A DNA stretch of 64,000 nt, from NCBI GenBank assembly GCA_046351255.1, contig JAXLYU010000009.1, positions 421,975 through 485,974 on the forward strand. The letters are read 5' to 3'. The position numbers and the translations under genes were made by a program. The notes beneath the pieces were generated by a model. That model was given only the letters and a program-made list of their open reading frames with translations, was not told where the DNA came from and made no database searches. Numbering within the stretch: the stretch's first letter is position 1; every line of letters begins with the position of its first letter. This stretch comes from Labilithrix sp. Its GTDB lineage: Bacteria > Myxococcota_A > Polyangia > Polyangiales > Polyangiaceae. Positions 5,521 to 63,897 of this stretch are shown in pieces.

Positions 5521-6504
5521 CTATTTCTCGACCGCTTTCCCGTCGTCCGTGCGGTTGCCGGTGAAGACGGTCACGGAAGCCTCGCGCCGGATGAGGTGGG
5601 TCCCGTACGCGGCGGTGGCCTTGTAGAACGTGTTGTTCGTGATCTTCACGTTCGTCGCTTTCGAGTCGTTCTGCTCGTCGACGTAGAGCGTGTACGAGCC
5701 ACCGCCGAGCGTGTTGCCGTTCATCTCGACATCGTCGATGTCGCCCTGATACGCCGTGAGGTTGATGGCGCCGGTCTCGCCGAGCCATTCGCCCTTCGCG
5801 TCCGTCATGCGGATGTGATTGCCGACGACCTTCGTCGCGCTCCCGCCGCCGTAGATCTCGATCCCGTCGAAGTGGGGTCCGGTCTGGCCCGAGGCGAGCT
5901 TCTCGATGAAGCTCGCCTGGATGATCATGCCACCTCCGACGGTCAGGGCGTTCTCCCAGCCGTGGAAGTACGACGCGCAGACCAAGGCGTCGCCGCCGAG
6001 GAAGCCAACGTAGCCGCCGGTCTCGGTGTAGACCTCGGAGTGGAGGACCTTCGTGCCCTTCACGCCGTCCTTGATCTTGATGGCGATGTCGTTCTCGCCA
6101 CCCTTCGAGTGGACCTTGCTGTTCTTGATCGTCACGTCGTTCGCGTTGACCAGGATCTGACCCGTGACGTCTTTGGCCTCGATGACCATGCCTGGCGTAT
6201 CGGCCTCGATGTCTCCCGATGCGGTGAGCGCGATCCCGGTCGGGACGCCGGTGTTCGCGGCGGAGGGCAGGGCGGCCGGCAGCGTGAGGAGGGTGGCGCA
6301 GGGATCGGTGCCGGGCGGGGCATCGCCGTCGGCGCCTGCCTCCGCGGCGGAGCCGCCCCCCGGCAGGTGGTTGTTGGCGTTCGTGGCGCCCGAGGACGAG
6401 CCGGAGGAGGCGCCGCCGTCCGGCGCGCCCGGGCTCGAGCCGTCGCCGGAGCCACACGCCCCCATCGCGGCGGGGACCAGCAGGAGAAGCCAAAGGGCAC
6501 GCAC
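5521..6504 (-). CDS. secreted right-handed beta-helix (pectate-lyase-fold-like) lipoprotein
   Basis: Signal peptide plus lipobox MGAC, a Gly/Ser linker, then repeated 'N.T..N' / 'V.I.NS.V' beta-helix-like rungs. Paralogous to 27807..28769. Confidence 0.6.
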   Translation of the reverse strand: MRALWLLLLVPAAMGACGSGDGSSPGAPDGGASSGSSSGATNANNHLPGGGSAAEAGADGDAPPGTDPCATLLTLPAALPSAANTGVPTGIALTASGDIEADTPGMVIEAKDVTGQILVNANDVTIKNSKVHSKGGENDIAIKIKDGVKGTKVLHSEVYTETGGYVGFLGGDALVCASYFHGWENALTVGGGMIIQASFIEKLASGQTGPHFDGIEIYGGGSATKVVGNHIRMTDAKGEWLGETGAINLTAYQGDIDDVEMNGNTLGGGSYTLYVDEQNDSKATNVKITNNTFYKATAAYGTHLIRREASVTVFTGNRTDDGKAVEK

Positions 6505-6524
6505 GACCGCGATAGTATCGCGAG

Positions 6525-7940
6525 ATGACGAACGGGGAGACGGTCGACGTTGCGCTCATCGGCGCCGGCATCATGAGCGCCACCCTCGGGACGCTGCTGC
6601 GGAAGCTCGAGCCCTCGCTTCGCATCGGAATTTACGAGCGCCTGGACCGCGCCGCGGCCGAGAGCTCCGACGCGTGGAACAACGCCGGGACGGGGCACGC
6701 GGGGTTCTGCGAGCTCAATTACACGCCGGCAAACGAGGACGGCGGCGTCGACTGCAAGAAGGCGATTCACATCGCGGGTCAGTTCGCGACGAGCCTCGAG
6801 CTCTGGCGCTCGCTCTCTGCGAGCGGCGACCTCCCGGAGGAGAAGGAGTTCGTGCGGCCGGTCCCGCACCTCAGCTTCGTGTGGGGAGAGCGCGACGTGC
6901 GGTTCCTGCGCGCGCGGCAGCGGAAGCTGATCGACTCGCCGCTCTTCGCGGGGATGGAGATCTCCGAGGACCCTGGGCGCATCGCGGACTGGATCCCGCT
7001 CGTCATGGAGGGCCGTGACCGGAGCGAGCCCGTCGCGGCCACGCTCATGGCGCGCGGCACGGACGTCAACTTCGGCGCCCTCGCGCGCGCAATGGTCGCG
7101 GGCATGACGAAGCAGGACGGCTGCGACCTGCACCTCGAGCACGAGGTCCGCGGCCTCCGCCGCGACGAGGACGAGTGGTGCCTCGACGTGTGCGATCTCG
7201 CGAGCGGTGAGGAGCGCACCGTCCGCGCCAAGTTCGTATTCATCGGCGCGGGCGGATATTCGCTTTCGCTCCTCGAGAAGAGCGGGATCCCGGAGGCGGT
7301 CGGCTATGGTGCGTTTCCCGTCAGCGGTCAGTGGCTCCGGTGCACGAATCGCGACGTCATCGGCCGTCACTTCGCGAAGGTCTATGGCAAGGCGGAGGTC
7401 GGCGCGCCGCCCATGTCCGTGCCGCACCTCGACTCGCGGTGGATCGACGGCAAGCCGGAGCTGCTCTTCGGCCCTTACGCGGGTTTCACGACGAAGTTCC
7501 TGAAGGAGGGCTCGTGGCTCGACCTGCTCCGCTCCGTCGGGGTCAGCAACGTCGGCTCCGTCCTCAGCGCCGGCCTCGAGAACCTCGACCTCACCGCGTA
7601 CCTCGTCGGGCAGGCGATGCTCTCCATCGACGAGCGCATCTCGCTCCTGCGTCGGTACTACCCGGCCGCGGAGCCCGACGACTGGGAGGTTCAGGTCGCG
7701 GGGCTGCGCGTTCAGATCATCAAGGCGGACGGCAACGGCCTCGGCGAGCTGAAGTTCGGCACGGAGGTCGTGACGAGCGCCGACGGATCGATCGCTGCGC
7801 TCCTCGGTGCCTCCCCCGGTGCATCCACCGCCGCCTCCATCATGCTGGAGGTCCTCGAGCGTTGCTTCACGACGCGATGGCGCACCCCGATCTGGCGGGA
7901 GCGCCTCGCGAAGCTCCTTCCGACCAGGTTTGTCGCTTAG
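6525..7940 (+). CDS. mqo: malate:quinone oxidoreductase
   Basis: FAD fold 'VALIGAGIMSATLG', a conserved 'LLGASPGASTA' segment, and ~470 aa length typical of Mqo. Confidence 0.9.
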   Translation: MTNGETVDVALIGAGIMSATLGTLLRKLEPSLRIGIYERLDRAAAESSDAWNNAGTGHAGFCELNYTPANEDGGVDCKKAIHIAGQFATSLELWRSLSASGDLPEEKEFVRPVPHLSFVWGERDVRFLRARQRKLIDSPLFAGMEISEDPGRIADWIPLVMEGRDRSEPVAATLMARGTDVNFGALARAMVAGMTKQDGCDLHLEHEVRGLRRDEDEWCLDVCDLASGEERTVRAKFVFIGAGGYSLSLLEKSGIPEAVGYGAFPVSGQWLRCTNRDVIGRHFAKVYGKAEVGAPPMSVPHLDSRWIDGKPELLFGPYAGFTTKFLKEGSWLDLLRSVGVSNVGSVLSAGLENLDLTAYLVGQAMLSIDERISLLRRYYPAAEPDDWEVQVAGLRVQIIKADGNGLGELKFGTEVVTSADGSIAALLGASPGASTAASIMLEVLERCFTTRWRTPIWRERLAKLLPTRFVA

Positions 7941-7987
7941 TACCCAAAACGCCCCAGTCGCGACGTGTGACCCTCGCTCCTCGATCC

Positions 7988-8009
7988 CGCGAATGCGCGG
8001 CGATTCGCG
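7988..8009. promoter_or_regulatory. inverted repeat CGCGAAT-N8-ATTCGCG upstream of katE
   Basis: A perfect 7-bp inverted repeat about 50 bp upstream of the katE ATG. Possible operator or hairpin. Confidence 0.25.
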
Positions 8010-8057
8010 CGCCGGAACGACCCTTGCCTCAGCGCGCGACCCTGCCCAGGAGGGTCG

Positions 8058-10403
8058 ATGGCTTCCAAGAAGACGAGCGCGCGTTCGACGATCAGTGGTC
8101 CGTCCAGGAAAGGAGGGTCCGGCTCGAGGGACCTGCCTCAGCGTAAATTCGAGGGCACAGGCGCCCTCGCCGACGCGATGCCGTTCAACGCCACGAAGGC
8201 CGCGGAGTACGGACGCGCGGCGCCGATGCCTCCGGCCGGGGCCACCGCGACACCGCCCGATCCCTCGGTGACGGGGAGCACGCTCACGGAGACGATCGCC
8301 TCCCCGAAGACGGGCTCGGGCAAGCCACGCCTCGGCTTCAGCGCCGGGCAGCTCCCGCTCGACCGTGTGCGGGCGGACTCCTCCGGGCAAGGGTTGACGA
8401 CGAACCACGGCGTACCCGTCGCGGACAACCAGAGCTCGCTCAAGGCGGGCCTTCGCGGACCGGCGCTCCTCGAAGACTTCATCCTGCGCGAGAAGATCAC
8501 GCACTTCGACCACGAGCGTATCCCCGAGCGAATCGTCCATGCCCGCGGCTCCGGAGCCCACGGCTACTTCGAGTGCTATGACTCGCTGAGCGAGGTGACG
8601 CGCGCGTCGCTCTTCGCTCAGAAGGGCAAGCGCACCCCGGTCTTCGTCCGGTTCTCGACCGTCGCCGGTGAGCGCGGCTCGACCGACACCGCGCGCGACG
8701 TCCGCGGCTTCGCGATCAAGTTCTACACCGACGAAGGAAACTGGGACCTCGTCGGGAACAACATCCCCGTCTTCTTCATCCAGGACGCGATGAAGTTTCC
8801 CGACCTCGTCCACGCCGTGAAGCCCGAGCCGCACCACGGCATGCCACAGGCGGCGAGCGCCCACGACACGTTCTGGGACTTCGTCTCGCTGATGCCGGAG
8901 TCGACCCACATGCTGATGTGGGTCATGTCCGATCGCGCGATCCCTCGCAGCTACCGCATGATGCAGGGCTTCGGCGTCCACACCTTCCGCTTCGTGAACG
9001 CGGAAGGAAGATCGATGCTCGTGAAGTTCCATTTCCGCCCGCTCCTCGGCACGCACTCGCTCGACTGGGACGAAGCGGTGAAGATCTCGGGCGCCGATCC
9101 CGATTTTCACCGGCGCGACCTCTGGGAAGCGATCGAGGCGGGCGCATTTCCGGAGTGGGAAATGGGCGTCCAGATCTTCTCGGAGAGGCAGACCGAGAAA
9201 TGGAGCTTCGATTTCCTCGACGCGACGAAGATCGTGCCGGAGGAGCTCGTCCCGGTCCAGCCGATCGGGAAGCTCGTCCTGAATCGCAATCCGGACAACT
9301 TCTTCGCGGAGACGGAGCAGGTCGCGTTCTGCGTCGCTCACGTGGTGCCCGGGCTCGACTTCACGAATGACCCGCTCCTCGCGGGACGAATTCACTCGTA
9401 CGTCGATACCCAGATATCGCGCCTCGGTGGGCCGAACTTCCACGAGCTCCCCATCAACGGCTCCGTCGCGCAGGTCCACAACAACCAGCGGGACGGGATG
9501 CATCGCCAGACCATCCATCGCGGTCGGGTGGCGTACGAGCCGAACTCGCTCGGCGGCGGATGTCCGTTCCAGAACGGCGCCATGAGAGGGTTTACCTCGT
9601 TCCGCGACCCCAATGTCGAGGACAAGGTTCGCGGCAAGCCGGAGAAGTTCGCCGACCACTACTCGCAGGCCGCGCTCTTCTACCGGAGCCAGACGCCCGT
9701 GGAGCAAGCGCATATCCTGCGCGCGTTCCGCTTCGAGCTGACGAAGGTGCAGGTCCCGGCGATTCGCGAGCGCATGGTCGCGAGCTTGCTCAACGTCGAT
9801 CGCGACTTCGCCACGAAGCTCGCCCGGGAGCTCGGGATGGACCTGCCGAAGCCGATGCCGAGAGCGATCAAGCGCCCGCTGCCTCCCGAGGTCGAGGTCT
9901 CGTCGCGACTGTCGCTCACCGCGTTCCCCGGCGACGGCCGCATCCGTACGCGTCGCGTCGCGGTGCTCGTCGCCGACGGGATCGATGGCGCCGAGGCGAT
10001 CCACGCGGCGCTGTCGGCCGAGGGCGCGATCCCGCGCTTTGTCGGCGCGCGCCTCGGGACGGTGAAGACGAAGCAAGGGGAGATCGACGTCGAGGTGACC
10101 TTCGAGACGATGCCGTCCGTCCTCTTCGACGCGTGTGCGATCCCCGACGGAAAGTCTGCCATCGCGTCGCTCGCGGGCATCGGCAACGTGCTCGAGTTCG
10201 TGAAGGACCAGTACCGCCACGCCAAGACCATCCTGGCGCTCGGCGCCGGCGCCGACCTCCTCGCGAAGGCGGGAGCTCCGTCCGACGCGCGCGATCCCGG
10301 CCTGCTCGTGCGCGGTCCGGGACCGAAGGCGGTGCCAGAGTTCATCAAGGCGATCGGCCGCCACCGCCACCACGAGCGCGAGACGGACCCGCCCCGTGTG
10401 TGA
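8058..10403 (+). CDS. katE: large-subunit catalase HPII with C-terminal DJ-1/PfpI-like domain
   Basis: RBS AGGAGGG. Catalase signature '[21 protein letters not shown]'-like ([23 protein letters not shown]), at 781 aa. Confidence 0.92.
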   Translation: [781 protein letters not shown]

Positions 10404-40955: not shown

Positions 40956-42008
40956 ATGATCTTCCGTCAGCTCTTCGACCAGGTCTCGAGCACGTACACG
41001 TACCTTCTCGCCGACGAGGCGACGCGGGAAGCGATCTTGATCGATCCCGTCTTCGAGCGACACGTGCGCGATGCGGCGCTCGTGCGCGAGCTCGACCTGA
41101 AGCTGCTCTACACCGTCGACACCCACTGTCACGCCGACCACGTCACGGGCGCGTGGCTCATGAAGGAGGCGTTCGGCAGCAAGGCCGCGCTCGCGAAGGC
41201 GGTCGGCGCGGAGCACATCGACGTGCCGCTCCAGCATGGGGACGTGATCCGCTTCGGGAAGGAGGCGATCGAGGTGCGCGCCACGCCGGGTCACACCGAC
41301 GGCTGTCTCTCGTTCGTCACGCCGGATCGAACGATGGTCTTCACGGGCGACGCGCTCCTCGTGCGCGGCGCGGGGCGTACCGACTTCCAGCAGGGCGACC
41401 CCGCGCTCCTCTATCAGTCGATCCAGCAACAGCTCTTCTCGCTGCCCGACGACTGTGTCGTCTATCCGGCGCACGACTACGACGGCCGCACGTCGAGCAC
41501 GATCGGCGAGGAGAAGAAGTTCAACGCGCGCATCGGTGGCAACGCCCGCGAGGAGGACTTCGTCGGTTACATGCTCAATCTCTCGCTACCGCATCCGAAG
41601 CAGCTCGATATCGCGGTCCCGGCGAACATGCGCGGCGGCAAGACGGAGGACGGAAAGATCCCCGCGGCGCCATCGTGGGGGCCGCTCGTCACCACGTACG
41701 CGGGAGTCCTCGAGATCAAACCGGACTGGGTCGCGCGCCATCGCGATGACGTGCACATCCTCGACGTGCGCGCCCCCGCCGAGCTGAGCGGAGAGCTCGG
41801 TCACTTGATGGGCGCGCTCAACATCCCGCTCGAGGAGCTGCGCGCGCGCACGGGCGAAGTCAAATCGGACAAGCCCGTCGTGGTGGTGTGCCAGACGGGG
41901 CGCCGCTCGGCGATCGCCACGCAGATCCTCGCGAGAGCGGGGTTCGCCAAGGTGGCCAATCTGGCCGGCGGCATGCTCGCGTGGCGCGACCTCGCGCTGC
42001 CGATGTGA
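40956..42008 (+). CDS. persulfide dioxygenase (ETHE1-like MBL-fold)–rhodanese fusion
   Basis: MBL motif 'HCHADH' and a C-terminal rhodanese active site 'CQTGRRS'. Confidence 0.75.
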   Translation: MIFRQLFDQVSSTYTYLLADEATREAILIDPVFERHVRDAALVRELDLKLLYTVDTHCHADHVTGAWLMKEAFGSKAALAKAVGAEHIDVPLQHGDVIRFGKEAIEVRATPGHTDGCLSFVTPDRTMVFTGDALLVRGAGRTDFQQGDPALLYQSIQQQLFSLPDDCVVYPAHDYDGRTSSTIGEEKKFNARIGGNAREEDFVGYMLNLSLPHPKQLDIAVPANMRGGKTEDGKIPAAPSWGPLVTTYAGVLEIKPDWVARHRDDVHILDVRAPAELSGELGHLMGALNIPLEELRARTGEVKSDKPVVVVCQTGRRSAIATQILARAGFAKVANLAGGMLAWRDLALPM

Positions 42009-42635: not shown

Positions 42636-44711
42636 TCAAGTTCGCGTCGAGCTCGTGGCGTGCGAGGGGCGGCGGCCCTTCACCTTGCGCGGCTTTCGCA
42701 CGGGCATCGGCTCGTCGCCGGCGCGGAACGCGAGGCGCACGGGCTTCGGCGCAAGAGATGGTGTCTTCGACGCGAGCGCCTCGTACGGCGCGCGACCGAC
42801 CGCGCGTCGCTCGTTGACGAGCGTCGCCCAGATGCCGCCCTCGCGGGCCTCCGCCCGCTCGCACTCGCGCGGGTCGAAGCGCAGCTCCGCCTCGAACTCC
42901 GTCGTGTCGCCCAGGATCTCGTCGTTCATGCCGAGCTCGGCGAGCTCGCGGAACGCGCCCTTGCCGCGGCGGTCGTACGTGAGGATCGTGTGTGCGGTGG
43001 AGACCGCGCCCGCCCAGGGATAGGAGCGAAGCGCCCAGCCGCTCGAGAGCTCGTTCAGACGATCGTCGACCTCCGCGCGCTCGTCGTCGGTCTTCCACGG
43101 TGAGTCCGGCGCGAAGAAGATGCCGAGGCCGAAGTGGTCGCCCTCGAGCTCCCACGTCTCGCGGATGCCGAAGCGATCGGGAGACTGCGCGACGAGCGAG
43201 CCGTGTGTGAGGCCGAACTCGCCGACGATGTAGACCGCGAGGTCGTCCCGGTGTTCGTCGAGGAAGTCGAGGGTGGAGAGCGCTTCGTCCGCGGTCTCGG
43301 TCGGGAACTCCGTGAAGCACATCGCCTCGGCCGCGATGCCCGAGGTCGTGAGGCGCGCCATGACGTCCGATACGACCTCGATCGGCGCGCCCTTGTCGAT
43401 CAGCTCGAGGACGCGGTTCGAGGCGGACTCGACGCCGAGCGCGCACGCCACGGCGCCCGCCTTGCGGAGGAGGTCGGCGCGCTCCTGCGTCAGGTACTTC
43501 TCCGGCTTCAGGTCGGTCGCCCAGCGAATATCGAGGCCCGCGTCGACGATCGCCTGGGAGAGCTTGACGAGCGTCTTCGGCGCGACCGAGTCTTGCGAGA
43601 AATAGAAGTATCTCGTCCCGTAGTTCTCGGAGAGCGCCCGGAGATGATCGGTAATCCCCGCCACGTCGCGCTCGCGATATGCGGCCGTCCCGACCTCGGC
43701 GAGTCCGTAATGGCAAAACGTGCATTTGCCCCAGTAACAGCCGCGCGTCGGGTCGTAAGGGAGCACGAGCCGGGGCGCCAGATATTGCTTCAGCGGCAGG
43801 CCGTCGAAGTCCGGCGGGGGGAGGACCTTTAGGTTCTCCATCCCGTGGCCGGCCATCCAGCGCGCGCCCATCAGCTTGTCGCGCACGACGACGTTGGCGC
43901 ACTCGCGGAGCGGCGTGCCGCTCTCGAGCGCGCGCACCAGCGCGAGGAGCGTGTGCTCACCCTCGTATACGCAGGCCGAGTCGAACGGCCCGAGCGCCCG
44001 CGCCAGCCGCTGGCCGGAGAGGCGAATGAGCATCTGCGTGATGCCCGGGCCGCCGCAGGTGACGTGCAGGTGGGGGAGCGCCCGCTTGATCTTGAGCGCG
44101 AACGCGTACGCCGGCTGGAGCTGACCAGGGAAGCAGACCGACAGACCGACGACGCCGACGTTCGCCTCGCGGAGACGGGGGACGAGCGTGTCCGTCACGT
44201 AGTCGTCGAAGGGATCCGCGTCCGGCCGCGCGCTCCGCTCGATCTCCTCCATCGTCGTGAGGCCGAGCGGCGTGCGGTACGCCGTGAAGTCGAGGTGGAG
44301 CGGGAAGTGCGTGGCGGAGACGACGCGCAGCGCGGCCTCGATCGTCGCGACGGCGGCGCCGTACGCGTCCGGATCGTGGAACGCCGCCTCGTCGCGCATC
44401 GTGGCCTTCGCCTCCTCGATGCCGGACGGCACGGCGCGGGCTTCGCCGCGCGCGCGGACGAGGCCGGCGTACTCGAGCTGCTCCTGATGGGAGAGGGCCC
44501 GCTGCCCGTCGAGCTCGGCGAGCCGGGCCTCGAGGCGGTCCCGCAGCTGCGCCAATCGATCGGCGGAGAGGAGGGCATCGAAGGCCTCGACGTTGGCGTC
44601 GATCGGCAGCACGTCGACGCCCTCGGACCGCAGAAATCCCGTGAGCATCGGCACCGCGAGGTACGGCGCGGTCGGGTCACAGGTCGGCGGATAGACGAGC
44701 GCGACGCGCAT
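42636..44711 (-). CDS. B12-binding-domain radical SAM protein with long C-terminal extension
   Basis: N-terminal 'MRVALVYPP' B12-binding-type fold. The Cys cluster '[14 protein letters not shown]' has Cx4Cx2C spacing. A ~220-aa C-terminal extension follows. Confidence 0.7.
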
Positions 44712-44743
44712 GGCGGCGGGTCCGTAGCACGCCACCGGCCCGC

Positions 44744-45662
44744 ATGCCCGTGATACGCCGCAAAATCATGAGCCTGCTCCAGCTCTTGGGCCTCCGGCAC
44801 CCCATTCTTCAGGCCCCGATGGCCGGCGTCTCGACCCCTGCCATGGCGGCCGCGGTCTCGCGTGCGGGCGGCCTCGGCGCGCTCGGGGTGGGCTCGAGCA
44901 CGCCCGAAGGCGCCCGGAAGGCGATCGCGGAGACCCGGGCCCTGGCCCCGGCCGCGCCGCTCCAGGTGAACGTCTTCTGCCATCGCCCCGCGACGCCAGA
45001 CCCCGCGCGCGAGGCGGCCTGGTCCGCGCGGCTCCCGTTCGCGGAGTACGGCGCGGCGCCTCCCGCGACACTCACGGAGATCTACCGGAGCTTCGTCGTC
45101 GACGACGCGATGCTCGCCATGCTCGTCGCGGAGCGGCCGGAGGTCGTGAGCTTCCACTTCGGGCTCCCGAAGCCGGCGGCGATCCGCGCGCTCCGCGACG
45201 CCGGCATCCTGCTCCTCGCCTGCGCCACGTCGCTCGCCGAGGCGCGCCTCTGTGCCGACGCCGGCGTTCACGCGGTCGTGGCGCAAGGCTGGGAGGCGGG
45301 CGGGCGCCGCGGCTGCCTCGCTCGGCACCGCGTTCATCGCTTGCCGGGAGTCGAGCGCGGACGAGCACCATCGCCGTGCGCTTCTCGGCGACGCCGGCCA
45401 TCACACGACGATGACCCGCGCCGTGTCGGGACGCCCCGCGCGCTGCCTCGCCAATCGATTCACGGAGATCGGGAATGCGACGCCGGACGGCGCGATTCCC
45501 GACTACCCGATCGCGTACGACGCCGGGAAAGCGCTCCACGCGGCCGCGAAGGCCAAAGGGGAATACGGATTCGGCGCGCAGTGGGCGGGGCAAGGCGCGC
45601 CGCTCGCGCGGGCGATGCCAGCAGCGGACCTCGTCGAGAGGCTCGCGGACGAGCTGCGGTGA
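44744..45662 (+). pseudogene. nitronate monooxygenase (NMO/2-nitropropane dioxygenase) disrupted by an internal deletion and frameshift
   Basis: The N-terminal 186 codons (…HFGLP…[10 protein letters not shown]) are in one frame. The C-terminal '[11 protein letters not shown]…' continues in another frame from ~45300. About 33 residues between them are missing compared with NMO family members. Confidence 0.6.
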
Positions 45663-45668
45663 CCCGCG

Positions 45669-46565
45669 TCAGCCGAGGGCGATGTCGTCCTGGTCCATCA
45701 GGAGATACTGATTGGCGAGGCCTTTCAGCATGTCGAGCGCGACCTGGATGTGCATCTCCGAGATGACGAGGAAATCTTCGTATTCGATCCGGTACGCGAT
45801 GATGTCCGTCTCCGCGGCCGCGTCGTACGAGCGAGGCAGACCTCCCCAGAGGTCCATGACGCCGAGCGTGAAATCGGAGGCGACGTCGACGCTCTCGCCC
45901 GACGGGATCGTGCAGTGAATGCGCCCATACTCCACGTGGAGCGCGTACGTGCACGGATCGCCAGCCTTCCAGAAGCGGTGCCCCGCCGGCACGCGCACCT
46001 CGACCATGCGCCGCGCGAGATCGACGAGTGCATCGATGTTCATGTGTACGAACGGGCCTTTCCGTAGCTCGATGAGCTGTTCGACGAGCGTGCGCGGTCG
46101 GTCGTAATAGTCGCCGATATCCGCCTTGGGCGGCCGCTTCGGGTCCGCCGGCAGGCGATGGCGCATGCGGGAGAGGAGCGTCGCGAGGAAGCGGAGGGCG
46201 TTGCGAAGGAGAGAGAAGTTCTCCTCCAGCGCGGAGCGATATCCCTTTACCGGGATCTCGAGCGTCCGCGTGTCGATCTCCGCGATCGCGTCCTGGGTGC
46301 GCGCCTCCGCCATCACGTTGAGGAGCCCGAAGCCGCGGCGCTGCTTGATGACCGCGTCGGGCAGCCTCGGTCGCTTGATCACGACCTGGCCCTCGATGAC
46401 GACGTGGATGACGCTCGGCTCGTCGCCTGCGCGGACGAGGTATTCCCCGGCGCGGTACGATCGCTCGCGCGCATTCTCGACGAGCAGGAGCAGGCCCTCG
46501 TCATCGAGTCCGCCGAACTCCTCGAGGGAGCGAAGGAGGAGGAGCCGGTCGCGGATCTCGGTCAT
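45669..46565 (-). CDS. tandem cyclic-nucleotide-binding-domain protein
   Basis: Start MTEIRDR with an ATGA overlap to the upstream gene's stop, and two cNMP-binding-like segments. The 899-aa ORF extension beyond this is a shadow. Confidence 0.6.
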
Positions 46566-49219
46566 GCCGCGAGCTCCTGCAGATGGAAGCGCGCCACCTC
46601 GCGCACGACCTCGCTCTCGTTGTCCTTCAGGCTCTCGAGGAGGTCGTCGTAGTCCTTCTTCCGCGTGAACTGGTAATGGCGCGCGACGAGCGTCCACTCG
46701 TCCTCGGAGATCTCGTCGACGAGCCCTCTCACCGCGCTCCGGAGAGGATTCACGAGGATGCCGTCGATGAGCTCGAGGCTCGTGGCGCGCTGGTCCTTGG
46801 TCCCGCGGAGCTGGCGATGGATCTGCGCGAAATCCTCGGTGGGAAACGCGAGCCCGAGCAGGCGGAAGAGCCGGGAGACCGCGTTCTTCTCCTTGTGCTC
46901 GAGCGTCGTTCGCAGGAGGTCGTGGCCGGTCGTCTTGCGTCCGGGCTCGCCCTCCGCGCCGCGCGTGAGGACGAGGCGCGAGTCGAGCGACGCAAAGGCA
47001 CGCTGCACCGTCTGGTCGATGGTCTGCTGCAGGACCTTCGCGTCGAGCAGCAGGTCGGGCGTCCGGCGCACGAGCCGCTCGAGGGAGCGGATGATCTGGA
47101 ATCGCACCGCACCATCGCGCTCGTTCGGGAGCCAGGCGAGGAGCGCGGCTGCGGCCGGCTGTGGCGTGAGGAGCGCCATCGCGTGGGGCAGGCGCCAGCG
47201 CAGCGTGCTCGCCGCATCGGACCTCTCGAGCGCCGCGACGAGCCCCGGGAGCGCGCGATCCCCGAAGGTCGCGATCGCCTTCTCCGCGCTCGGCCGCGTC
47301 GTCTCCTCGCCGAGGCGCTCGATGAGGGCGGGGATGAAGGTCTCGCGCCCGAGCCGGCCCATCGCGTCGACCGCGGCGCAGCGCACCGGGGGCTCGACCG
47401 CCGTGGCGAGGGTGACGAGGACGTCGTCGTAGCCGGTCACACCGCGCTGGGCGATCGCCTCCGCGAGCGCGATCTTGGTCTGGGACGTCCCGCGCTTCAT
47501 GAGCGCGTCGATACGCTCCTTCGCGTCGGAGCCGTAGATCTCGCCCGATGCGATCAGGTTCACCGTGATCGTGGCGCGGACCTCGGCGCTCTCCTCGAAG
47601 CTCATTCGCATGAGCAGTTGCTGTGCGTCGGGCGCGAGCACCGAGCGGGCGGCGATGGTCGCGGCGCGGACGCGTGGCGACGGGTGCTCGATCACGCGGT
47701 CGATGACGTGCACGACGTTCGTGCGTCGCGCGCGCGTGAAGATCGCGAGCGCGCGCTCCACGACGACCTCCGACGGGTGATAGAGGATGAGGGCGGGAAT
47801 CAGGTGCACCTTCTCCTCGCGCTCGAGGACGTGAAGCGCGGCCAGCACCTCGTTGTCGAAGCGGCTGTCGAGCGCGGCGATGAGCGTCTCGAGGGAGGCG
47901 AGGTCGAGGTCGGGGAACTCCTCGAGGTGAATCACGCGGCCGGTCCTCAGGCGCGCGCGGAAGAGCTCGACGTACGGCTCGCGGAGCGCGAGGGAGGCCA
48001 CCGCCCAGAACGCGGCGATGGCGACGAGCCCGATCGCCAGCATCCGCAGCGTCGCGCCCGGCATCGCCGCGAACGCGAGGAGCGCGAGCGAGGCGACGAT
48101 TTGCCCGCCGCGCTGGCCGATGACGTCCATGAAGCCCTTCACGCGGGCGCGGGCCTCGTCGCTGAACGGCAGAAAGAGCAGTTCCGTCGCCGTGCGATGG
48201 AGGGAGTAGCGGAGCGAGCCGTCGGCGCTCTTCAGCGCGAGGACGGCCGCGATCCCACCCGTGGCCGCGATCGCGGCGCCGCCGAACGCGAGGAGCACGG
48301 GCAAGATGGCGAGCGCCGCGCCGAGTGAGGTGCGCTTGAGGAGCCGGCTCACGAGGAAGAGCTGGCACGCGAGCGAGGCGACGTTCAGCGCGAAGTACAC
48401 GGTGCCGAGGAAGCGCCCGAGGCTCGCGGCGGGGACCAGTCGCGCCACCATGCTCTTGAAGAGGTAGTCGGCGAGCGTGAGCGTGATGGTGGAGACGAGC
48501 AGCATCGCCACCACGCGTCGGGCGTAGAGCGACTCGCGGATGTATCCGAGGTTGCTCGCGAACGAGGTCCTGGCCTTGCCCTTGGCGGTGCCCGTATGGC
48601 CGGCGTCACGGAAGAGGAAGGGGAGGGCGGAGGTGGCGCCGAAGCCGATCGCGGAGACGAGGAGCAGGTCCTGCGCCGGGACCCAGCGCGTGAGCGCGCT
48701 CGCCGCGCCGCTGCCGAAGATGGCGCCGAGCACGCTGCCCGCGCCGATGAACCCGTAGAGCCGCTTCGCCTGCGTGACGCTGAAGAGGTTGCCCACGAGC
48801 GTCCAGAAGTGGACGAGCAGGAGCGTGGTGAGGAGCCCGGACCAGACGTAGAGCGCGTAGAGCCCCGATCGGCCGAGGCGCTCGACGACGGTGAAGAACG
48901 CGAACGTCACCCCGCCCGCCGCGAGCGAGAACACGGCGAGCGCGGGGCGCGCAGAGATGCGCGCGGACACGATCGCCTGGGCCCGGGCGATGACGAACGA
49001 CAGCCCGGCGACGGCGAGAAAGACCCAAGGGAGCTGCGACGCCGGGACCTTGGCGAGGAAGAGCGCGTCGCGCGCGGTCTCGAGGACGGTGTGGCTGCCG
49101 ATGAGCCCGAAGAGCGTGAAGAACGCGGCCCACGCGTCACGTCGCTCGTCCGGTCGTATCGCGAGGAGTGCCACCCGAGCGCGGCATCCTAGCCTGTTGT
49201 ACGCTCGTGACCATCGCAC
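46562..49219 (-). CDS. TLC (ATP/ADP-translocase-like) membrane domain fused to C-terminal HEAT-repeat domain
   Basis: About 12 TM helices with TLC-like motifs in the first ~430 aa, then ~450 aa of HEAT/PBS-lyase-like repeats (…PRVRAATIAARS…, …PPVRCAAVDAMG…). Confidence 0.65.
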   Translation of the reverse strand: MRWSRAYNRLGCRARVALLAIRPDERRDAWAAFFTLFGLIGSHTVLETARDALFLAKVPASQLPWVFLAVAGLSFVIARAQAIVSARISARPALAVFSLAAGGVTFAFFTVVERLGRSGLYALYVWSGLLTTLLLVHFWTLVGNLFSVTQAKRLYGFIGAGSVLGAIFGSGAASALTRWVPAQDLLLVSAIGFGATSALPFLFRDAGHTGTAKGKARTSFASNLGYIRESLYARRVVAMLLVSTITLTLADYLFKSMVARLVPAASLGRFLGTVYFALNVASLACQLFLVSRLLKRTSLGAALAILPVLLAFGGAAIAATGGIAAVLALKSADGSLRYSLHRTATELLFLPFSDEARARVKGFMDVIGQRGGQIVASLALLAFAAMPGATLRMLAIGLVAIAAFWAVASLALREPYVELFRARLRTGRVIHLEEFPDLDLASLETLIAALDSRFDNEVLAALHVLEREEKVHLIPALILYHPSEVVVERALAIFTRARRTNVVHVIDRVIEHPSPRVRAATIAARSVLAPDAQQLLMRMSFEESAEVRATITVNLIASGEIYGSDAKERIDALMKRGTSQTKIALAEAIAQRGVTGYDDVLVTLATAVEPPVRCAAVDAMGRLGRETFIPALIERLGEETTRPSAEKAIATFGDRALPGLVAALERSDAASTLRWRLPHAMALLTPQPAAAALLAWLPNERDGAVRFQIIRSLERLVRRTPDLLLDAKVLQQTIDQTVQRAFASLDSRLVLTRGAEGEPGRKTTGHDLLRTTLEHKEKNAVSRLFRLLGLAFPTEDFAQIHRQLRGTKDQRATSLELIDGILVNPLRSAVRGLVDEISEDEWTLVARHYQFTRKKDYDDLLESLKDNESEVVREVARFHLQELAA

Positions 49220-50079
49220 GCTGGATCACGGCGGTTCTCGTCTTCTTCGCCTGGGGCTTCGTCATGCACGGGACGGGGCTCCTGTTGCACGAGTTCGGCG
49301 GTCACGCGCTGACGGCGACCATCTGGGGCTGCGGCATCGACGCCTACAAGCTGACGTTCTTCGGGCACGGGCAGGTCACACGCACGCCCTGCGAGGACTG
49401 GACGATGACCGGCATCGTCATCACGGACTGGTCCGGGCTCGTCATCACGAGCGCGGCTGGCGCCGTCGCGGCCGGGCTCCTCCGGAGGCGCCACTGGCCG
49501 CCGATGTGGCGCCTCCTCGTCGCGCTCGTCGCGTTCTTCTTCCTGATCGGCCAGCTCGGCTACGCGACGACGGGCGGCTTTCACGACCTCTACGATCCAG
49601 GCCGCACCGCGCGTTGGCTCGGCAAGCGCGGGCTCCACGTCCTCGCGTGGGTGCCCTCGATGATCCTCTACGCGCTCTCCGCAGTGTACTGCGCGCGCGA
49701 GGCGGTGGACGCCTATCGCGAGCACTTCGGTACGAAGACCCGCCTTCGCACGCTCGGACATCTCGCGAGCACGCTCGGGGTCGCGGGGGTCCTCTACTTC
49801 ATGGCGTTCCGGATCGAGTGGAAGATCCGCGAGGACCTCGCGATGCGCGGCGTGGAGGTGGAGGCCGAGCGTCTCGCGGTGGTGCGGCACACGGCGCCCC
49901 CGTTCCCGATCGACAAGGTGCTCCTCCTCATCTCCCTCGGCGCCGTGATCTGGGCCTTTGCGCGGCCGATCCGCGAGACGAACGACCCGCGGCCCTATCC
50001 CGGGCGCCTCCCGGCGATCGTCGCGCTCGCCGCCGCCGGGTGCTTTCTCCTGATGTTCCTCCTCATAGTACGCTCCTAG
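49168..50079 (+). CDS. polytopic membrane protein, hypothetical (HEFGGH motif)
   Basis: Six or more TM helices. The start may be ATG 49264. It overlaps the TLC-HEAT start divergently. Confidence 0.45.
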   Translation: MPPERGILACCTLVTIARWITAVLVFFAWGFVMHGTGLLLHEFGGHALTATIWGCGIDAYKLTFFGHGQVTRTPCEDWTMTGIVITDWSGLVITSAAGAVAAGLLRRRHWPPMWRLLVALVAFFFLIGQLGYATTGGFHDLYDPGRTARWLGKRGLHVLAWVPSMILYALSAVYCAREAVDAYREHFGTKTRLRTLGHLASTLGVAGVLYFMAFRIEWKIREDLAMRGVEVEAERLAVVRHTAPPFPIDKVLLLISLGAVIWAFARPIRETNDPRPYPGRLPAIVALAAAGCFLLMFLLIVRS

Positions 50080-52432: not shown

Positions 52433-54559
52433 TTGGCCGCCAAGATTCCCCTCGAACGCATTCGTAACATCGGCATTTCGGCTCACATCGACTCGGGCAA
52501 GACGACGCTCACCGAGCGCGTCCTGTTCTACACGGGCCGAATCCACAAGATCCATGAGGTCCGCGGCAAGGACGGCGTCGGCGCCAAGATGGACTCGATG
52601 GATCTCGAGCGCGAGAAGGGCATCACGATCCAGTCCGCGGCGACGTACTGCCTGTGGCCTGGCTCGCAGAACCAGATCGAGCCGATCAACATCAACATCA
52701 TCGACACGCCAGGCCACGTCGACTTCACGATCGAAGTCGAGCGCGCGCTCCGCGTCCTCGACGGCGCGGTCCTGATCCTCGACTCCGGCAAGGGCGTCCA
52801 GAGCCAGTCGATCACGGTCGACAAGCAGATGAAGCGGTATCACGTGCCGCGCATCGCCTTCGTCAACAAGATGGATAATCCCGGCGCCAACTACGAGAAG
52901 GGCGCCGACATGCTCGCGAGCTCGGTCACCTGGCGCGCGCCGCCGCGATCCAGCTGCCGATGGGCGGAGCATGAGTTCAAGGGCATCATCGACCCGATCC
53001 TCATGAAGGTCTTCATCGAGGGCAACGACGGGCGAGGTCATCAAGGAAGTCGAGATCCCGCCGAGCGCCAAGCGAGGTCGCCGAGGCCCGCCGCGCACAT
53101 CATCGAGAAGGTGGCCGACGTCGAGGACACCCTCGCCGAGAAGTTCCTCGCCGAGGAGCCCATCTCGATCGAGGAGATCCGCGCCGCCATCCGCCGCGCG
53201 ACCCTCTCGCTCAAGATGACGCCGGTCATGTGCGGCTCGGCCGTCAAGAACAAGGGCGTCCAGCTCCTGCTCGACGCGGTCTACTACTACCTCCCGAACC
53301 CGACGGAGGTCGTCAACGAGGCGCACGACCAGGACAACAACGAGGCGAAGGTCGTCGTCAAGAACGACCCCTCCGGCCCGTTCGTCGGCCTCGCGTTCAA
53401 GCTCCAGCAGGACAAGTACGGTCAGCTCACGTACTTCCGCCTCTACTCGGGCCGCATTGCTGCGGGCGACACCATCTTCAACACGTCGAACGAGAACCGT
53501 AAGGTCCGCGTCCCGCGAATGTTCCGCATGCACTCCGACGACCGCGAAGAGATTCAGGTCGCGGAGGCCGGTGACATCGTCGCCTTCTACGGCGTCGAGG
53601 CCTCGTCCGGCGAGACGTTCACGGACGGCAAGGTCAACTACACGCTGACCTCGATGCACGTCCCGGCCGCCGTCATCTCGCTCGCCGTCGCTCCGAAGGA
53701 CCGCGGCGCGGAGACGAACTTCTCGAAGGCGCTGAACCGCTTCACGAAGGAGGACCCCACCTTCCGCGTGCACCAGGATGAGGAGTCGCAGCAGACCATC
53801 ATCTCGGGCATGGGTGAGCTCCACCTCGACATCTACATGGAGCGCATGAAGCGCGAGTACAACTGCGAGGTCGTCGCCGGCAAGCCGCAGGTCGCGTACC
53901 GCGAGTCGATCTCGAAGAAGGCCGAGATCAACTACACCCACAAGAAGCAGACGGGTGGCTCGGGCCAGTACGCGAAGGTCATGGGCTACATCGAGCCGCT
54001 CCCGCCGGACGCGGTCGAGAGCTACGAGTTCGTGGACGACGTCGTCGGCGGCTCCATCCCGCGCGAGTTCATCTCGTCGTGTGACAAGGGCTTCAAGGAG
54101 GCGGTCAAGAAGGGCAACCTCATCGGCTTCCCCGTCGTCGGTATCCGCTGCTGCGTGAACGACGGCGCGAGCCACGCGGTCGACTCCTCCGAAATGGCCT
54201 TCAAGACGGCGGCCATGATGGGCTTCCGTGAGGCCTACGAGAAGGCGGGCGCGACGATCCTCGAGCCGATCATGAAGGTCGAGATCGACGCCCCGACCGA
54301 GTTCCAGGGCGCCGTCGTCGGCCAGGTCAATCAGCGCCGCGGCGTCATCCAGGAGACGATCGCGGGCGACACCGTGAACGTCATCGCCGAGGTCCCGCTG
54401 AACGCGATGTTCGGTTACTCGACCGACCTCCGCTCCGCCACGCAGGGCAAGGGCACCTTCACGATGGAATTCGCGAAGTACGCCGTCGTTCCGCGCCAGG
54501 AGCAGGACGAGATGATCAAGGCCTACAAGGCCAAGCTCGCCGCGGACGCGAAGAAGTAA
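52433..54559 (+). CDS. fusA: elongation factor G (second-type, spd/mitochondrial-EFG1-like)
   Basis: TTG start after a GGAGAA RBS. G1 'AHIDSGKTT' and a 'GKDGVGAKMDSM' insert typical of spd-type EF-G. It is not in an str operon context. Residues ~160-220 are garbled by compensating frameshifts (see findings). Confidence 0.85.
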   Translation: MAAKIPLERIRNIGISAHIDSGKTTLTERVLFYTGRIHKIHEVRGKDGVGAKMDSMDLEREKGITIQSAATYCLWPGSQNQIEPININIIDTPGHVDFTIEVERALRVLDGAVLILDSGKGVQSQSITVDKQMKRYHVPRIAFVNKMDNPGANYEKGADMLASSVTWRAPPRSSCRWAEHEFKGIIDPILMKVFIEGNDGRGHQGSRDPAERQARSPRPAAHIIEKVADVEDTLAEKFLAEEPISIEEIRAAIRRATLSLKMTPVMCGSAVKNKGVQLLLDAVYYYLPNPTEVVNEAHDQDNNEAKVVVKNDPSGPFVGLAFKLQQDKYGQLTYFRLYSGRIAAGDTIFNTSNENRKVRVPRMFRMHSDDREEIQVAEAGDIVAFYGVEASSGETFTDGKVNYTLTSMHVPAAVISLAVAPKDRGAETNFSKALNRFTKEDPTFRVHQDEESQQTIISGMGELHLDIYMERMKREYNCEVVAGKPQVAYRESISKKAEINYTHKKQTGGSGQYAKVMGYIEPLPPDAVESYEFVDDVVGGSIPREFISSCDKGFKEAVKKGNLIGFPVVGIRCCVNDGASHAVDSSEMAFKTAAMMGFREAYEKAGATILEPIMKVEIDAPTEFQGAVVGQVNQRRGVIQETIAGDTVNVIAEVPLNAMFGYSTDLRSATQGKGTFTMEFAKYAVVPRQEQDEMIKAYKAKLAADAKK

Positions 54560-60869: not shown

Positions 60870-61964
60870 TCACGAGCGAAAGGGTGCGTGATGCAGATCG
60901 TCGCGAGTCTCTCCGGACGGATCGACGGGAAGGACGATGGTGAAAGCCGTCCTCCCACCAGGGTTGGATTCGACCTCGAGGCGCGCGCCGTTCTCGTTGA
61001 CGATCTGCTGTGCAATGGATAGTCCAAGCCCCGTTCCGGATGGCTTCGTCGTGAAGAACGGATCGAAGATGCGACTCAGATTCGCTGCTGAAATTCCCGG
61101 TCCGTCGTCGATGACCTCGAAGCGGATAGTGGGATGAGCGCGATCGGACGTGCCGGGTGCGACGCCGGCCGTCGATGTGTTTTTGCGAACGCGCAAGAGT
61201 ACCCGCGACGGTGTGCCGCCCGTCGCGTCGAGCGCATTGTTGAGGAGGATGACGAGCGCCTGCGCGATCTGCCGATCGTCCACGTTCACGTCCGGCAGTC
61301 CCGCCTCCGCTTCCACGGGAATGTCCGTGTGCGCGCGGAGGCGAGCGCGCAGCTCCGAGAGCGCGGAGGCGGTGATGGCGGTGGGTCGTCGTGGACTTCG
61401 CTTCGGCGCGGCGGGGCGTCCAAACTGGAGGGACGTGCGCACGAGGCGCTCGATCCGCTCCACCATCTGCAGCATCAGCCCGACGTGGGGGAGCGAGATC
61501 CCCTCGTCGCGGAGCTCTTCGCAGAGCGATCGCAACGCTGCGACCGGATTGCGGACCTCGTGTGCGAAGCCGGCGACCATGGTGCCCATCGCGGCGAGCC
61601 GCTCGAAGCGCTGGCGCTCTGCATCGAAGCGCTCCTCGTCGGCGCGCCGACCGCGCGCCCGTCCGAGCTCGAGGAAGATCGCGAGCCTCCGCTCCAGCGC
61701 AGCCGCGCTCGTGATGCCCAGCACGAAGGTGTCGTTCGCGCGAAGGAGTGAGATGGTGGACTCGGGAATGGCGAGGTCCGAGATCAAGAGCAGCGGCACG
61801 TCGCCGAGGTGCGCACGAACGACCGAGAAATCCGCCACCGCCGCCGCGCGGAGGTCGAAGACCGCGGCCACGAACTCCACGTTTGGGATGGGGTCGCGTG
61901 GGCCCATGCGTGCGGTCGGAATCCCGACCGGCGTGATGGGAAGCTCACCGACCACCAGGATCAT
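60870..61964 (-). CDS. cytoplasmic sensor histidine kinase
   Basis: H-box 'FAHEVRNPVAAL', N-box 'LLNNALDA', G-boxes 'DDGPGI'/'GTGLGL'. There are no TM segments. ATGA overlap with the upstream GTPase stop. Confidence 0.85.
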   Translation of the reverse strand: MILVVGELPITPVGIPTARMGPRDPIPNVEFVAAVFDLRAAAVADFSVVRAHLGDVPLLLISDLAIPESTISLLRANDTFVLGITSAAALERRLAIFLELGRARGRRADEERFDAERQRFERLAAMGTMVAGFAHEVRNPVAALRSLCEELRDEGISLPHVGLMLQMVERIERLVRTSLQFGRPAAPKRSPRRPTAITASALSELRARLRAHTDIPVEAEAGLPDVNVDDRQIAQALVILLNNALDATGGTPSRVLLRVRKNTSTAGVAPGTSDRAHPTIRFEVIDDGPGISAANLSRIFDPFFTTKPSGTGLGLSIAQQIVNENGARLEVESNPGGRTAFTIVLPVDPSGETRDDLHHAPFRS

Positions 61965-63421
61965 GCGGGCCTCGCCTGCAGGAGCGCGCGACGCTCGTCC
62001 GACGTGAGCTTCCGCGCGAGCTCGAGCTCGAGGACGGCGTAGAACGCGGCCGGGTCCGGCACCGCCGCTACCGCGCGCGCGAGCCCGGCCTCGACCGCCG
62101 CCGCCGTCGGCGCCTCGAAGACGAGCTCGCCGAGATAGCGCGGTCGTCCCGACTGGAGCCCGAACGACGCGGGGCCCAGGTCCAGGGTGACGCCGTGGCG
62201 CAGCGCGACGGTGAGCGTCTCTGCGATCGCCCCCGCATATGCCGCGACCGAGGAGATGGGCGGCATGTCTGGATGGACGGTCCAGATCCAGCAAGTGCCC
62301 TCGTCGGTCTGCTGCGCGACGAGCACCGTCTCCGGGACCAGGAGCTCTCCGATCTGCGCGTACGCGCGCGCGGTCCGCACGAGCGCCTGCCGCGCCGCCT
62401 CCGCGTCGGCGAACGACATCCGCCGGGACGTGCGCACGACGTGCCCGATGGCGGCGTGACGCAGGACGCCGTCCGCCGCGAAGTCCGCAGGGCTCCGCGC
62501 CGGCAGGTCGAGCGCTCGCAGCACGGCGCGCCCGGTGTGGGCGGGCCAGATGAAGCCGGTGGGGACGGACGGGGAGGGCAGGTGAGGCGCGAGCGCGCGC
62601 ACGTGAACGGCAGAGACCGGGGCCGCGATTCGCTCGATCCGTCCGTGGATTTCCTGCGCCGCAGCGACCGCTGCGACCCGCAGCGTCTCGTCGGACTCGA
62701 CCGTCGTCTGCGCCTCCTCGAAGAGCAGCGCGGCCTGCGCCTCCTCGAGGAGCATCTCCGCCGCCCACTCTGGATCGAGGGTCTCCTGGCCGAGGCGCGC
62801 GAGCAGCTCGCCGGCGCTCTCCGCGCGGCGAACCGGGATGGGCGGCGGCGTGAGCTCCAGATCTCGGACCACGTTGCGGATGGATTGCACGAACGTATCG
62901 ACGACGCCGATCCCGTCGCTCGCGATCGCCTCCACCACCGTCGCGCCCTCCCGGCCGAGCGCCTCCGCGACGGCGCGCCCGTCCAGCGAGCCTCGGCGAT
63001 CCTGCTTGTTCGCTTGCAGCACGATGGGCAGCGGACGTCCGAGCTCCTTCGCGATCTCCTCATAGAGCTCGAGGCCGGCGCGTGCGCGCTCGATGCCCTC
63101 GGGATCGCTCTCGCAGACGAAGACGACCGCATCGGCGGTGGCGAGGAGGTGCCGGCGCCGCGGGCGAAGCGCCCCCTGACCCGGCACGCTGAGGACGTGC
63201 GACAGGAGCGGTATTCCGCGGGCGACCCCGGCATGAATCGGGAGCCAGTCGAAATACATCGTCCGCCCGCGGAGCTCGGCGGGAGTGACCACCTGCCGAT
63301 GGCGCTGCGCGGCAAAGAGGATGCATAGCTGCCGGAGATTCGTGGTCTTTCCGGCCATCGCCACGCCGTCGTAGACGACGCGCAACACGAGGCGTTGCTC
63401 TATGGGATCGAAGACCGGCAT
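61961..63421 (-). CDS. MglA-family small GTPase with ~295-aa C-terminal extension
   Basis: Colinear with MglA motifs: 'VVYDGVAMAGKTTNL' (P-loop), 'GRTMYFDWLP' (intrinsic Arg), 'SVPGQ' (catalytic Gln), 'VLQANKQD' (NKxD), 'ASDGIGVVDT'. Followed by an uncharacterized Ala/Leu-rich C-terminal domain. Confidence 0.8.
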   Translation of the reverse strand: MPVFDPIEQRLVLRVVYDGVAMAGKTTNLRQLCILFAAQRHRQVVTPAELRGRTMYFDWLPIHAGVARGIPLLSHVLSVPGQGALRPRRRHLLATADAVVFVCESDPEGIERARAGLELYEEIAKELGRPLPIVLQANKQDRRGSLDGRAVAEALGREGATVVEAIASDGIGVVDTFVQSIRNVVRDLELTPPPIPVRRAESAGELLARLGQETLDPEWAAEMLLEEAQAALLFEEAQTTVESDETLRVAAVAAAQEIHGRIERIAAPVSAVHVRALAPHLPSPSVPTGFIWPAHTGRAVLRALDLPARSPADFAADGVLRHAAIGHVVRTSRRMSFADAEAARQALVRTARAYAQIGELLVPETVLVAQQTDEGTCWIWTVHPDMPPISSVAAYAGAIAETLTVALRHGVTLDLGPASFGLQSGRPRYLGELVFEAPTAAAVEAGLARAVAAVPDPAAFYAVLELELARKLTSDERRALLQARPA

Positions 63422-63426
63422 TCTCC

Positions 63427-63897
63427 CTACTCGTTCCGAAGGCGCTCTCGCGCGCGGCGATTGAGGATCAGCGCTGGACCATGCTCTCCGGTCTCGCCGA
63501 CGACGATCGCGTTCCCGTGCCAGAAGGTGACCATCGACGATGCTCCTCGCTTCACGGCGAGGACCGCCGAAGGGTCGTTGAAGGTGGAGACGACGTCGAG
63601 CGCCGACGCCGCCCACTGGCCAATACGGAGGAGCCGCTTCGAATGCGATATTCGACTGCCGAATACCGCGATTGGCTCCGGAAAGGCGCATTCGCCGGTG
63701 CGGACGAAGGCGGCACCCCAGCCGCTGTCGAACGACGCCTCGAGCACCGGGCCCACCTCCGTGAGCACGGTGCGGTGTCGCTCGCCGCCCGCGTAGGCGA
63801 GGAGCTCCGCCGTCGTGAACGTGAACGTGGGGCTATATCCTTTCCCGGGGCGCGGAGACCACGTGGCGTAGGCCGGGGACGCGCACAGGCGGCTCAC
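63427..63897 (-). CDS. roadblock/LC7-like (MglB-like) protein
   Basis: 156 aa, 5 nt upstream of the MglA-like gene. The C-terminus 'SMVTFWHGNAIVVGETGEHGPALILNRRAR' resembles the MglB/roadblock beta-strand-helix end. Confidence 0.4.
   Translation of the reverse strand: MSRLCASPAYATWSPRPGKGYSPTFTFTTAELLAYAGGERHRTVLTEVGPVLEASFDSGWGAAFVRTGECAFPEPIAVFGSRISHSKRLLRIGQWAASALDVVSTFNDPSAVLAVKRGASSMVTFWHGNAIVVGETGEHGPALILNRRARERLRNE

Follow-up and report, generated by a model that had tools for sequence, protein, structure and literature searches.

What could a nucleotide-translocase-like membrane protein be doing in a free-living soil bacterium, joined to a long arm of HEAT repeats and encoded directly ahead of a protein composed of two cyclic-nucleotide-binding (CNB) domains? 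This question is raised by a two-gene operon of Labilithrix sp., found on the minus strand of a 64,000-nucleotide stretch of contig JAXLYU010000009.1 (GenBank assembly GCA_046351255.1, positions 421,975 to 485,974), hereafter the window. An earlier reading of this DNA from its letters and open reading frames (ORFs), here called the sequence-only reading, had described the first product as a TLC (ATP/ADP translocase-like) transporter fused to HEAT repeats and the second as a dual-CNB protein, and had proposed a transport or scaffold module regulated by cyclic nucleoside monophosphates (cNMPs). The two genes indeed constitute a self-contained, translationally coupled module, which we refer to as the NTT-HEAT gene and its tandem-CNB partner. 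NTT transporters are best known for their use in energy parasitism by Chlamydia, Rickettsia and microsporidia, and for ATP import into plastids. The NTT-HEAT branch has a much broader distribution than these parasite and plastid NTTs and is found in free-living soil phyla.

The architecture was already described in 2017, and the window harbors a further member of a functionally uncharacterised family. Using comparative genomics, Major, Embley and Williams (2017, Genome Biol Evol 9:480; PMC5381601) defined a monophyletic, widely distributed NTT-HEAT clade in which an NTT domain (PF03219) is fused C-terminally to HEAT repeats (PF13646/PF02985) and is followed immediately by a gene encoding a domain for the binding of cyclic nucleotides (cNBD, PF00027), inferred to belong to the same operon. 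Their survey listed 33 deltaproteobacterial sequences, reported NTT-HEAT-cNBD fusions in other lineages and duplicated cNBDs in oomycetes and Bacilli, and speculated that cAMP might adjust ATP uptake. The window pair resembles this clade in having an NTT domain C-terminally fused to HEAT repeats with a cNBD gene immediately downstream, and differs from the reported fusions in that its cNBD protein is separate and carries two CNB domains. New here are the quantified cross-phylum synteny with gene overlap, the link to NTT structures released in 2025, a corrected start codon, and the pattern of degeneracy in the phosphate-binding cassettes (PBCs) of the partner, which weakens the cAMP idea. The window contributes a further example without establishing a new principle; the family as a whole is a worthwhile experimental target. 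Its coupled tandem-CNB partner leads to a concrete, testable regulatory hypothesis, and the pair offers a clean two-protein system in which to study how a detachable ligand sensor can gate a carrier.

A transporter domain fused to a HEAT-repeat arm

The N-terminal domain of the NTT-HEAT protein is TLC/NTT-like rather than merely a generic member of the major facilitator superfamily (MFS), and represents a distant branch of that lineage. The Pfam TLC family (PF03219) matches the protein in three stretches with 48.3 bits (cut-off 21), and when the N-terminal 405 residues alone were compared with all PDB sequences, the sole match was Arabidopsis NTT1 (9j3j, E 1.7e-7). The AlphaFold2 (AF2) model, computed for the complex from a concatenated alignment (A5) and used here for residues 1-870 only, contains approximately 12 long helices in residues 8-395 followed by a linker helix, with a per-residue confidence (pLDDT) mostly between 80 and 93 across residues 1-870. 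In a Foldseek search of the PDB, the first three ranks are occupied by NTT1 structures, 9j3n from Chlamydia pneumoniae and 9j3l and 9j3m from Arabidopsis, all released in 2025 (E-values between 2.5e-8 and 3.5e-7, with a TM-score on target of 0.67-0.71 at 17-18% identity), and the generic MFS carriers NorA, sialin and SPNS2 rank below them. The TLC-like character put forward by the sequence-only reading is therefore borne out by family profile, PDB sequence match and fold alike, and a generic MFS domain devoid of TLC similarity, the outcome that would have spoken against it, is not what was found.

A 12-helix MFS fold is common to the window protein and the canonical NTT/TLC carriers (TC 2.A.12), such as AtNTT1, Npt1 and Npt2 of Chlamydia and Tlc of Rickettsia. 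Short motifs can be paired between the two groups: 'ETARDALF' in transmembrane helix (TM) 1 against the canonical R/K-D motif, 'QAKRLYG' against 'EAKKFYP', 'RYSL....E..F.P' against 'KYSL....E..Y.P', and D..FK against E..WK. The window protein differs in its additional 450-residue HEAT arm and its dedicated partner, and whereas NTT-HEAT proteins occur in free-living soil bacteria, canonical NTTs are found in obligate intracellular organisms or plastids.

Conservation within the family points in the same direction. Among 77 NTT-HEAT sequences from several phyla, a set of polar or charged residues in the TM domain is conserved in at least 93% (E32, R35, D36, Q135, K137, R138, D236, K240, N264, Q271, K315, D318, R322, E331, R342, K346, R355 and Q358), and several of these align with like-charged residues of AtNTT1. 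The transporter core is under purifying selection, in a pattern that fits a working carrier. The largely basic character of this conserved polar core and its cavity points to a substrate that is anionic, with a nucleotide as the most plausible candidate.

The C-terminal half, which had been read as some 450 residues of HEAT-type repeats, is confirmed as such by both profile and model. HEAT_2 (PF13646) matches in three stretches with 49.9 bits (cut-off 27.7), accompanied by weaker matches to HEAT_PBS and HEAT; the PDB sequence matches of this half are alphaRep HEAT designs; and the AF2 model shows a solenoid of approximately 24 short helices arranged as HEAT pairs in residues 425-870. The C-terminal part of the region (residues ~750-870) is strongly conserved and non-canonical. 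A PBS-lyase/NblB assignment of the HEAT region was considered and discarded, its matches being of repeat-level similarity only (E ~0.003-0.006).

At a G+C content of approximately 69%, long spurious ORFs are common in the window, and coding was consequently judged by third-position GC (GC3). The minus-strand ORFs at 46562-49219 and 45669-46565 have GC3 values of 0.93 and 0.87, respectively, and the alternative long frame through the second gene reaches only 0.46 upstream of 46565. The TGA stop of the NTT-HEAT gene and the ATG start of its partner share the tetranucleotide ATGA at 46562-46565 (junction GCGGCATGACCGAG; minus strand GCGGC-ATGA-CCGAG). Both ORFs of the sequence-only reading are accordingly real, but the length of 885 residues is most likely 870, and the length of 299 is 298 residues plus stop. 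The NTT-HEAT gene most likely starts at the GTG at 49174, the ORF start at 49219 probably lying 15 codons too far upstream, because homologues span 98% of the 885-residue ORF, a 98% identical homologue (P0001) is 870 residues long, the homologue alignment (A2) begins at ALLAIRPDERRD, and the gene calls in a near-identical metagenome contig (L081, 97% identity) are of 870 and 298 residues with a 4-nt overlap. The features of the operon are collected in Table 1. No promoter or terminator was found in a scan of 45400-49500, and the PADLOC models of anti-phage defence matched neither of the two proteins nor the upstream neighbour.

Table 1. Features of the NTT-HEAT/tandem-CNB operon, in window coordinates
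Feature	Position	Strand	Evidence
NTT-HEAT gene, 870 aa + stop (most likely start)	46562..49174	minus	ORF translation, GC3, homologues
TLC/NTT-like 12-helix MFS transporter domain, aa 1-420	47915..49174	minus	Pfam, PDB sequence match, AF2, Foldseek, conservation
Cytoplasmic HEAT-repeat solenoid, aa 421-870	46565..47914	minus	Pfam, PDB sequence matches, AF2, conservation
ATGA stop/start overlap of both genes	46562..46565	minus	direct sequence reading
Tandem-CNB partner gene, 298 aa + stop, without DNA-binding domain	45669..46565	minus	translation, GC3, Pfam, AF2, Foldseek
Degenerate PBC of the first CNB domain (CNB-A), aa 78-95	46281..46334	minus	profile alignment to PKG CNB domains
Non-canonical PBC of the second CNB domain (CNB-B), aa 232-251	45813..45872	minus	homologue conservation

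Synteny of the pair across phyla

A scan with one genome per species yielded 365 relatives of the operon, and the best 80 of these 365 loci were examined. According to their sequence records they belong to six or more phyla, including the Myxococcota (among them Labilithrix luteola, whose homologue is 64% identical), Acidobacteriota/Vicinamibacteria, Gemmatimonadota, Latescibacterota, Krumholzibacteriota and Eiseniibacteriota. Downstream sequence is available for 79 loci, and in 77 of them tblastn detected a tandem-CNB homologue as the immediately following gene on the same strand. One of the two exceptions (L078) contains a diverged ORF of 317 residues at the partner position. The other (L080) contains an apparent NTT-HEAT-CNB fusion of 1,391 residues (5587-9762) with an Arg-rich junction, THDRRWPGWSRARGRCSTARRRGRRPRGW; the junction resembles out-of-frame high-GC sequence, and we rejected a natural fusion at this locus in favor of a probable frameshift artefact of the metagenome-assembled genome (MAG). 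No natural fusion was found among the best 150 representatives of the NTT-HEAT protein, which, with the exception of a few shorter fragments, are ~850-950 residues long.

Both ORFs were measurable at 71 loci. In most of these the partner ORF opens no later than the stop of the gene upstream, with a typical overlap of 1-11 nt, and the spacer is never longer than 5 nt. The pairing is not due to chance: it is a near-obligate synteny with overlap of start and stop across phyla. The ATGA overlap and coupling noted in the sequence-only reading are thereby both seen in the window and conserved in related loci.

The NTT-HEAT family is large, with more than 1,600 homologues, and the TLC+HEAT_2 architecture is present in all 120 of 120 among the matches listed. 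A search with the concatenated pair gave 1,743 clusters at 50% identity (E <= 1e-30), a count that includes the partner family. The partner family is itself narrow, comprising 75 database clusters, nearly all of ~300 residues, many of which share a contig with an NTT-HEAT protein. Conservation around the pair extends to no further gene family in the 80 loci. About nine loci have a third gene after the CNB gene that encodes a stand-alone TLC/MFS-like transporter of 445-470 residues without HEAT repeats, for example L027 (9669-11006) and L067 (8929-10317), and also L028, L029, L045, L048, L059 and L078. This gene is absent from the window; its product might be another subunit of the carrier, or else a paralogue subject to the same control.

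The tandem-CNB partner and its proposed gating of the carrier

The Pfam cNMP_binding family (PF00027) matches the partner in two stretches with 61.3 bits (cut-off 27.5), so that each of the three families named in the sequence-only reading, TLC, HEAT_2 and cNMP_binding, scores above its cut-off. The AF2 model of the partner (pLDDT 91.8, pTM 0.84) has one CNB beta-barrel at residues 33-105 and another at residues 188-261, and both include a short PBC helix. A linker of ~25 residues joins the barrels, and helices make up the remainder, accounting for the whole length. Foldseek and profile searches both gave tandem CNB domains, those of PKA-R and PKG, as the best matches (Foldseek probability 1.00). 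The description of the partner as two cNMP-binding-fold domains lacking a DNA-binding domain, as opposed to a Crp-type regulator, agrees with the Pfam, AF2 and Foldseek results.

Like the partner, the regulatory regions of PKA-R and PKG have a pair of successive CNB beta-barrels that carry PBC helices. The known proteins are separate regulatory subunits that bind a catalytic partner and control it; here the presumed target would be a transporter, not a kinase. The window partner also has neither a dimerisation/docking domain nor an inhibitor sequence, its PBCs are non-canonical, and its inter-domain orientation differs (TM-score 0.35-0.41, root-mean-square deviation 12-18 Å). A second precedent is provided by the MloK1, HCN and CNG channels, membrane transport proteins under the control of a cytoplasmic CNB fold, as is proposed for the window pair. 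Profile matches to MloK1 and HCN were obtained, and in a sequence alignment the CNB-B cassette aligns with that of MloK1 without gaps, including the Arg. These channels, however, have a single, covalently attached canonical cNBD, whereas the window pair comprises an MFS carrier and a separate tandem-CNB protein, with the HEAT arm as a presumed adaptor between them.

To describe the cassettes across the family, PBC statistics were compiled from 72 partners from several phyla. The CNB-B segment aligns gap-free to the classical FGE....G.PR[ST]A...A cassette. Gly235 and Arg245 are invariant in 26 close homologues; among the 72 partners Gly235 is kept in 68, with canonical Gly-Arg spacing, and Arg245 in 63, with His in seven more. 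An acidic residue lies two positions past the CNB-B Glu site in 71 of the 72, and the residue following the Arg is Trp in 31 and Ser in 16. The CNB-B Gly and Arg are under purifying selection, and from this sequence pattern CNB-B probably still binds a phosphate-bearing ligand, for which a cNMP would be a hypothetical candidate. The partner family also has two invariant motifs outside the canonical CNB signature, R-D-R-x-L...R-S near the N terminus (residues 5-12) and R...LP(A)D(P) in the inter-domain linker (residues 135-139). Either motif may be a site at which the partner contacts the HEAT arm.

We give about even credence to a single membrane complex in which an NTT-type carrier is gated by the tandem-CNB subunit seated on the HEAT arm. 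The 12-helix MFS protein of NTT/TLC lineage would carry an anion, a nucleotide being the most plausible substrate, and the cytoplasmic HEAT solenoid of ~450 residues would serve as a docking arm for the subunit, which translational coupling would cause to be made in step with the transporter. A ligand would bind CNB-B, the only CNB domain with the phosphate-binding Arg, and could then shift the seating of the subunit on the HEAT arm, so that transport is either gated or tuned. A physical interaction of the two proteins is inferred from the gene coupling and, by a Rosetta-stone argument, from the NTT-HEAT-cNBD fusions of other lineages (PMC5381601).

Several observations weigh against this proposal. 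On the side of the carrier, the score for TIGR00769, which represents the canonical NTP/NDP exchangers ('AAA family'), is 51.6 bits where the cut-off is 387.2, far enough below threshold that the label of ATP/ADP antiporter is unwarranted; together with the 17-18% identity to solved NTTs, this means that the substrate may differ. On the side of the sensor, the PBC of CNB-A, whose register was set by profile alignment to PKG CNB domains, is degenerate and lacks both hallmark residues: the canonical Glu position is occupied by Leu in the window protein and by F, G or L across the family, and the canonical Arg position by Thr in the window protein and variably elsewhere. The Glu is missing from CNB-B as well, its position being V, A, I or M. 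No nucleotide cyclase gene is found nearby in the neighbourhood of the operon. The CNB part of the concatenated AF2 model, for which the alignment was shallow, has a pLDDT below 50 and conveys no interface information, and a literature search for functional studies of any NTT-HEAT member returned only the 2017 survey and papers citing it. Because the PBC residues of CNB-A (Glu and Arg) and CNB-B (Glu) have been lost, regulation by cNMPs is a hypothesis that cannot be read off the sequence itself. Loss of the conserved PBC Arg/Glu was an outcome that the sequence-only reading had named as refuting it, and this outcome is half realised: the CNB-B Arg is kept and the other three residues are not. 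Its larger proposal of a cNMP-regulated transport module stands as regards the transporter-like TM domain and the coupled CNB partner, and is unsupported as stated as regards the cNMP.

It is possible, though doubtful, that the complex is the same but that the CNB protein is not a cyclic-nucleotide sensor. The partner could be a ligand-free structural subunit or pseudo-receptor, or could bind another phosphate-bearing ligand, with AMP, ADP or ATP, a nucleoside, or a cyclic dinucleotide as candidates, and regulation could be by another signal or constitutive. The loss of Glu and Arg from CNB-A and of Glu from CNB-B, the residue after the CNB-B Arg being mostly Trp rather than Ser/Thr, and a neighbourhood without a cyclase gene all favor such a role, and nucleoside-binding PKA-R proteins of trypanosomes (6flo, 6hyi and 6hyq) are among the structural matches of the partner. 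However, the Gly and Arg of CNB-B stand at precisely the canonical distance, which is conserved across phyla, Epac binds cAMP despite having Gln at the PBC Glu position, and many nucleotide cyclases are encoded in Myxococcota.

A more specific scheme, which we consider unlikely, is that the partner, instead of being a receptor for cAMP or cGMP, uses CNB-B to sense a non-cyclic phosphate-bearing metabolite, such as a nucleoside phosphate or the adenylate pool, and that the HEAT arm feedback-gates an NTT-type importer. The CNB-B cassette follows the atypical pattern G-hydrophobic-x-[D/E] ... P-R-[W/S]-Y. If this scheme were true, the pair would be the first ligand-gated nucleotide-scavenging carrier of free-living, partly predatory soil bacteria.

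That the TM domain is no carrier, but a sensor ('transceptor') or membrane anchor, with the HEAT arm as a scaffold for signalling at the membrane to which the CNB protein, and perhaps other partners, would be recruited, seems to us quite improbable. HEAT solenoids are generic protein-protein scaffolds, the TM domain is very divergent from assayed NTTs, and the stand-alone TLC/MFS-like protein encoded at some loci could be the actual carrier there. The high conservation of the transport-core polar and charged residues across phyla is, however, as expected for an active carrier, and Pfam detected no output domain (kinase, cyclase or helix-turn-helix (HTH)) in either protein. Finally, an ordinary Crp/Fnr-type transcription factor that merely adjoins a transporter gene, as some databases would have it by naming homologues 'transcriptional regulator, Crp/Fnr family' or 'CRP-like cAMP-binding protein', is rejected as exceedingly improbable, since Pfam and NCBIfam scans of the partner detected no HTH, two CNB barrels and helices fill its whole length, its best structural matches are tandem-CNB regulatory subunits, and its synteny with the NTT-HEAT gene is near-obligate and overlapping.

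Genomic neighbourhood of the operon

The gene upstream of the operon (49168-50079, plus strand) is divergently oriented and encodes a multi-pass membrane protein with no Pfam match. Its ORF is of 303 residues, and 291 residues are called in a close relative, in which it lies ~32 bp from the NTT-HEAT start. This gene is kept only in near-identical contigs and not across the 80 loci. Downstream, a convergent gene for nitronate monooxygenase (NMO, PF03060; 44744-45662, plus strand) is split into two frames. The breakpoint lies at ~45303-45313, where the aligned NMO segments overlap by 11 nt, and the window is 149 bp short relative to the near-identical contig (L081), in which the NMO is intact at 347 residues. 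The split reflects either an error of assembly or a frameshift that has turned the gene into a pseudogene.

Just downstream of the operon is also found a 699-residue B12-binding radical-SAM enzyme (42636-44735, minus strand), and beyond it a metallo-beta-lactamase-rhodanese fusion (40956-42008, plus strand). Their order is the same in the 97%-identical contig, with no evident link to the transporter. The wider neighbours include an M1 peptidase, an NtrC-type regulator and an EF-G-family GTPase of 708 residues (52433-54559, plus strand), the last a paralogue located in the lowest-GC stretch (0.64 for 52-54 kb against ~0.69); all are unrelated to the operon. A 576-residue protein encoded at 61961-63691 on the minus strand has a weak match to the Arf family of small GTPases (26.7 bits, cut-off 22.3).

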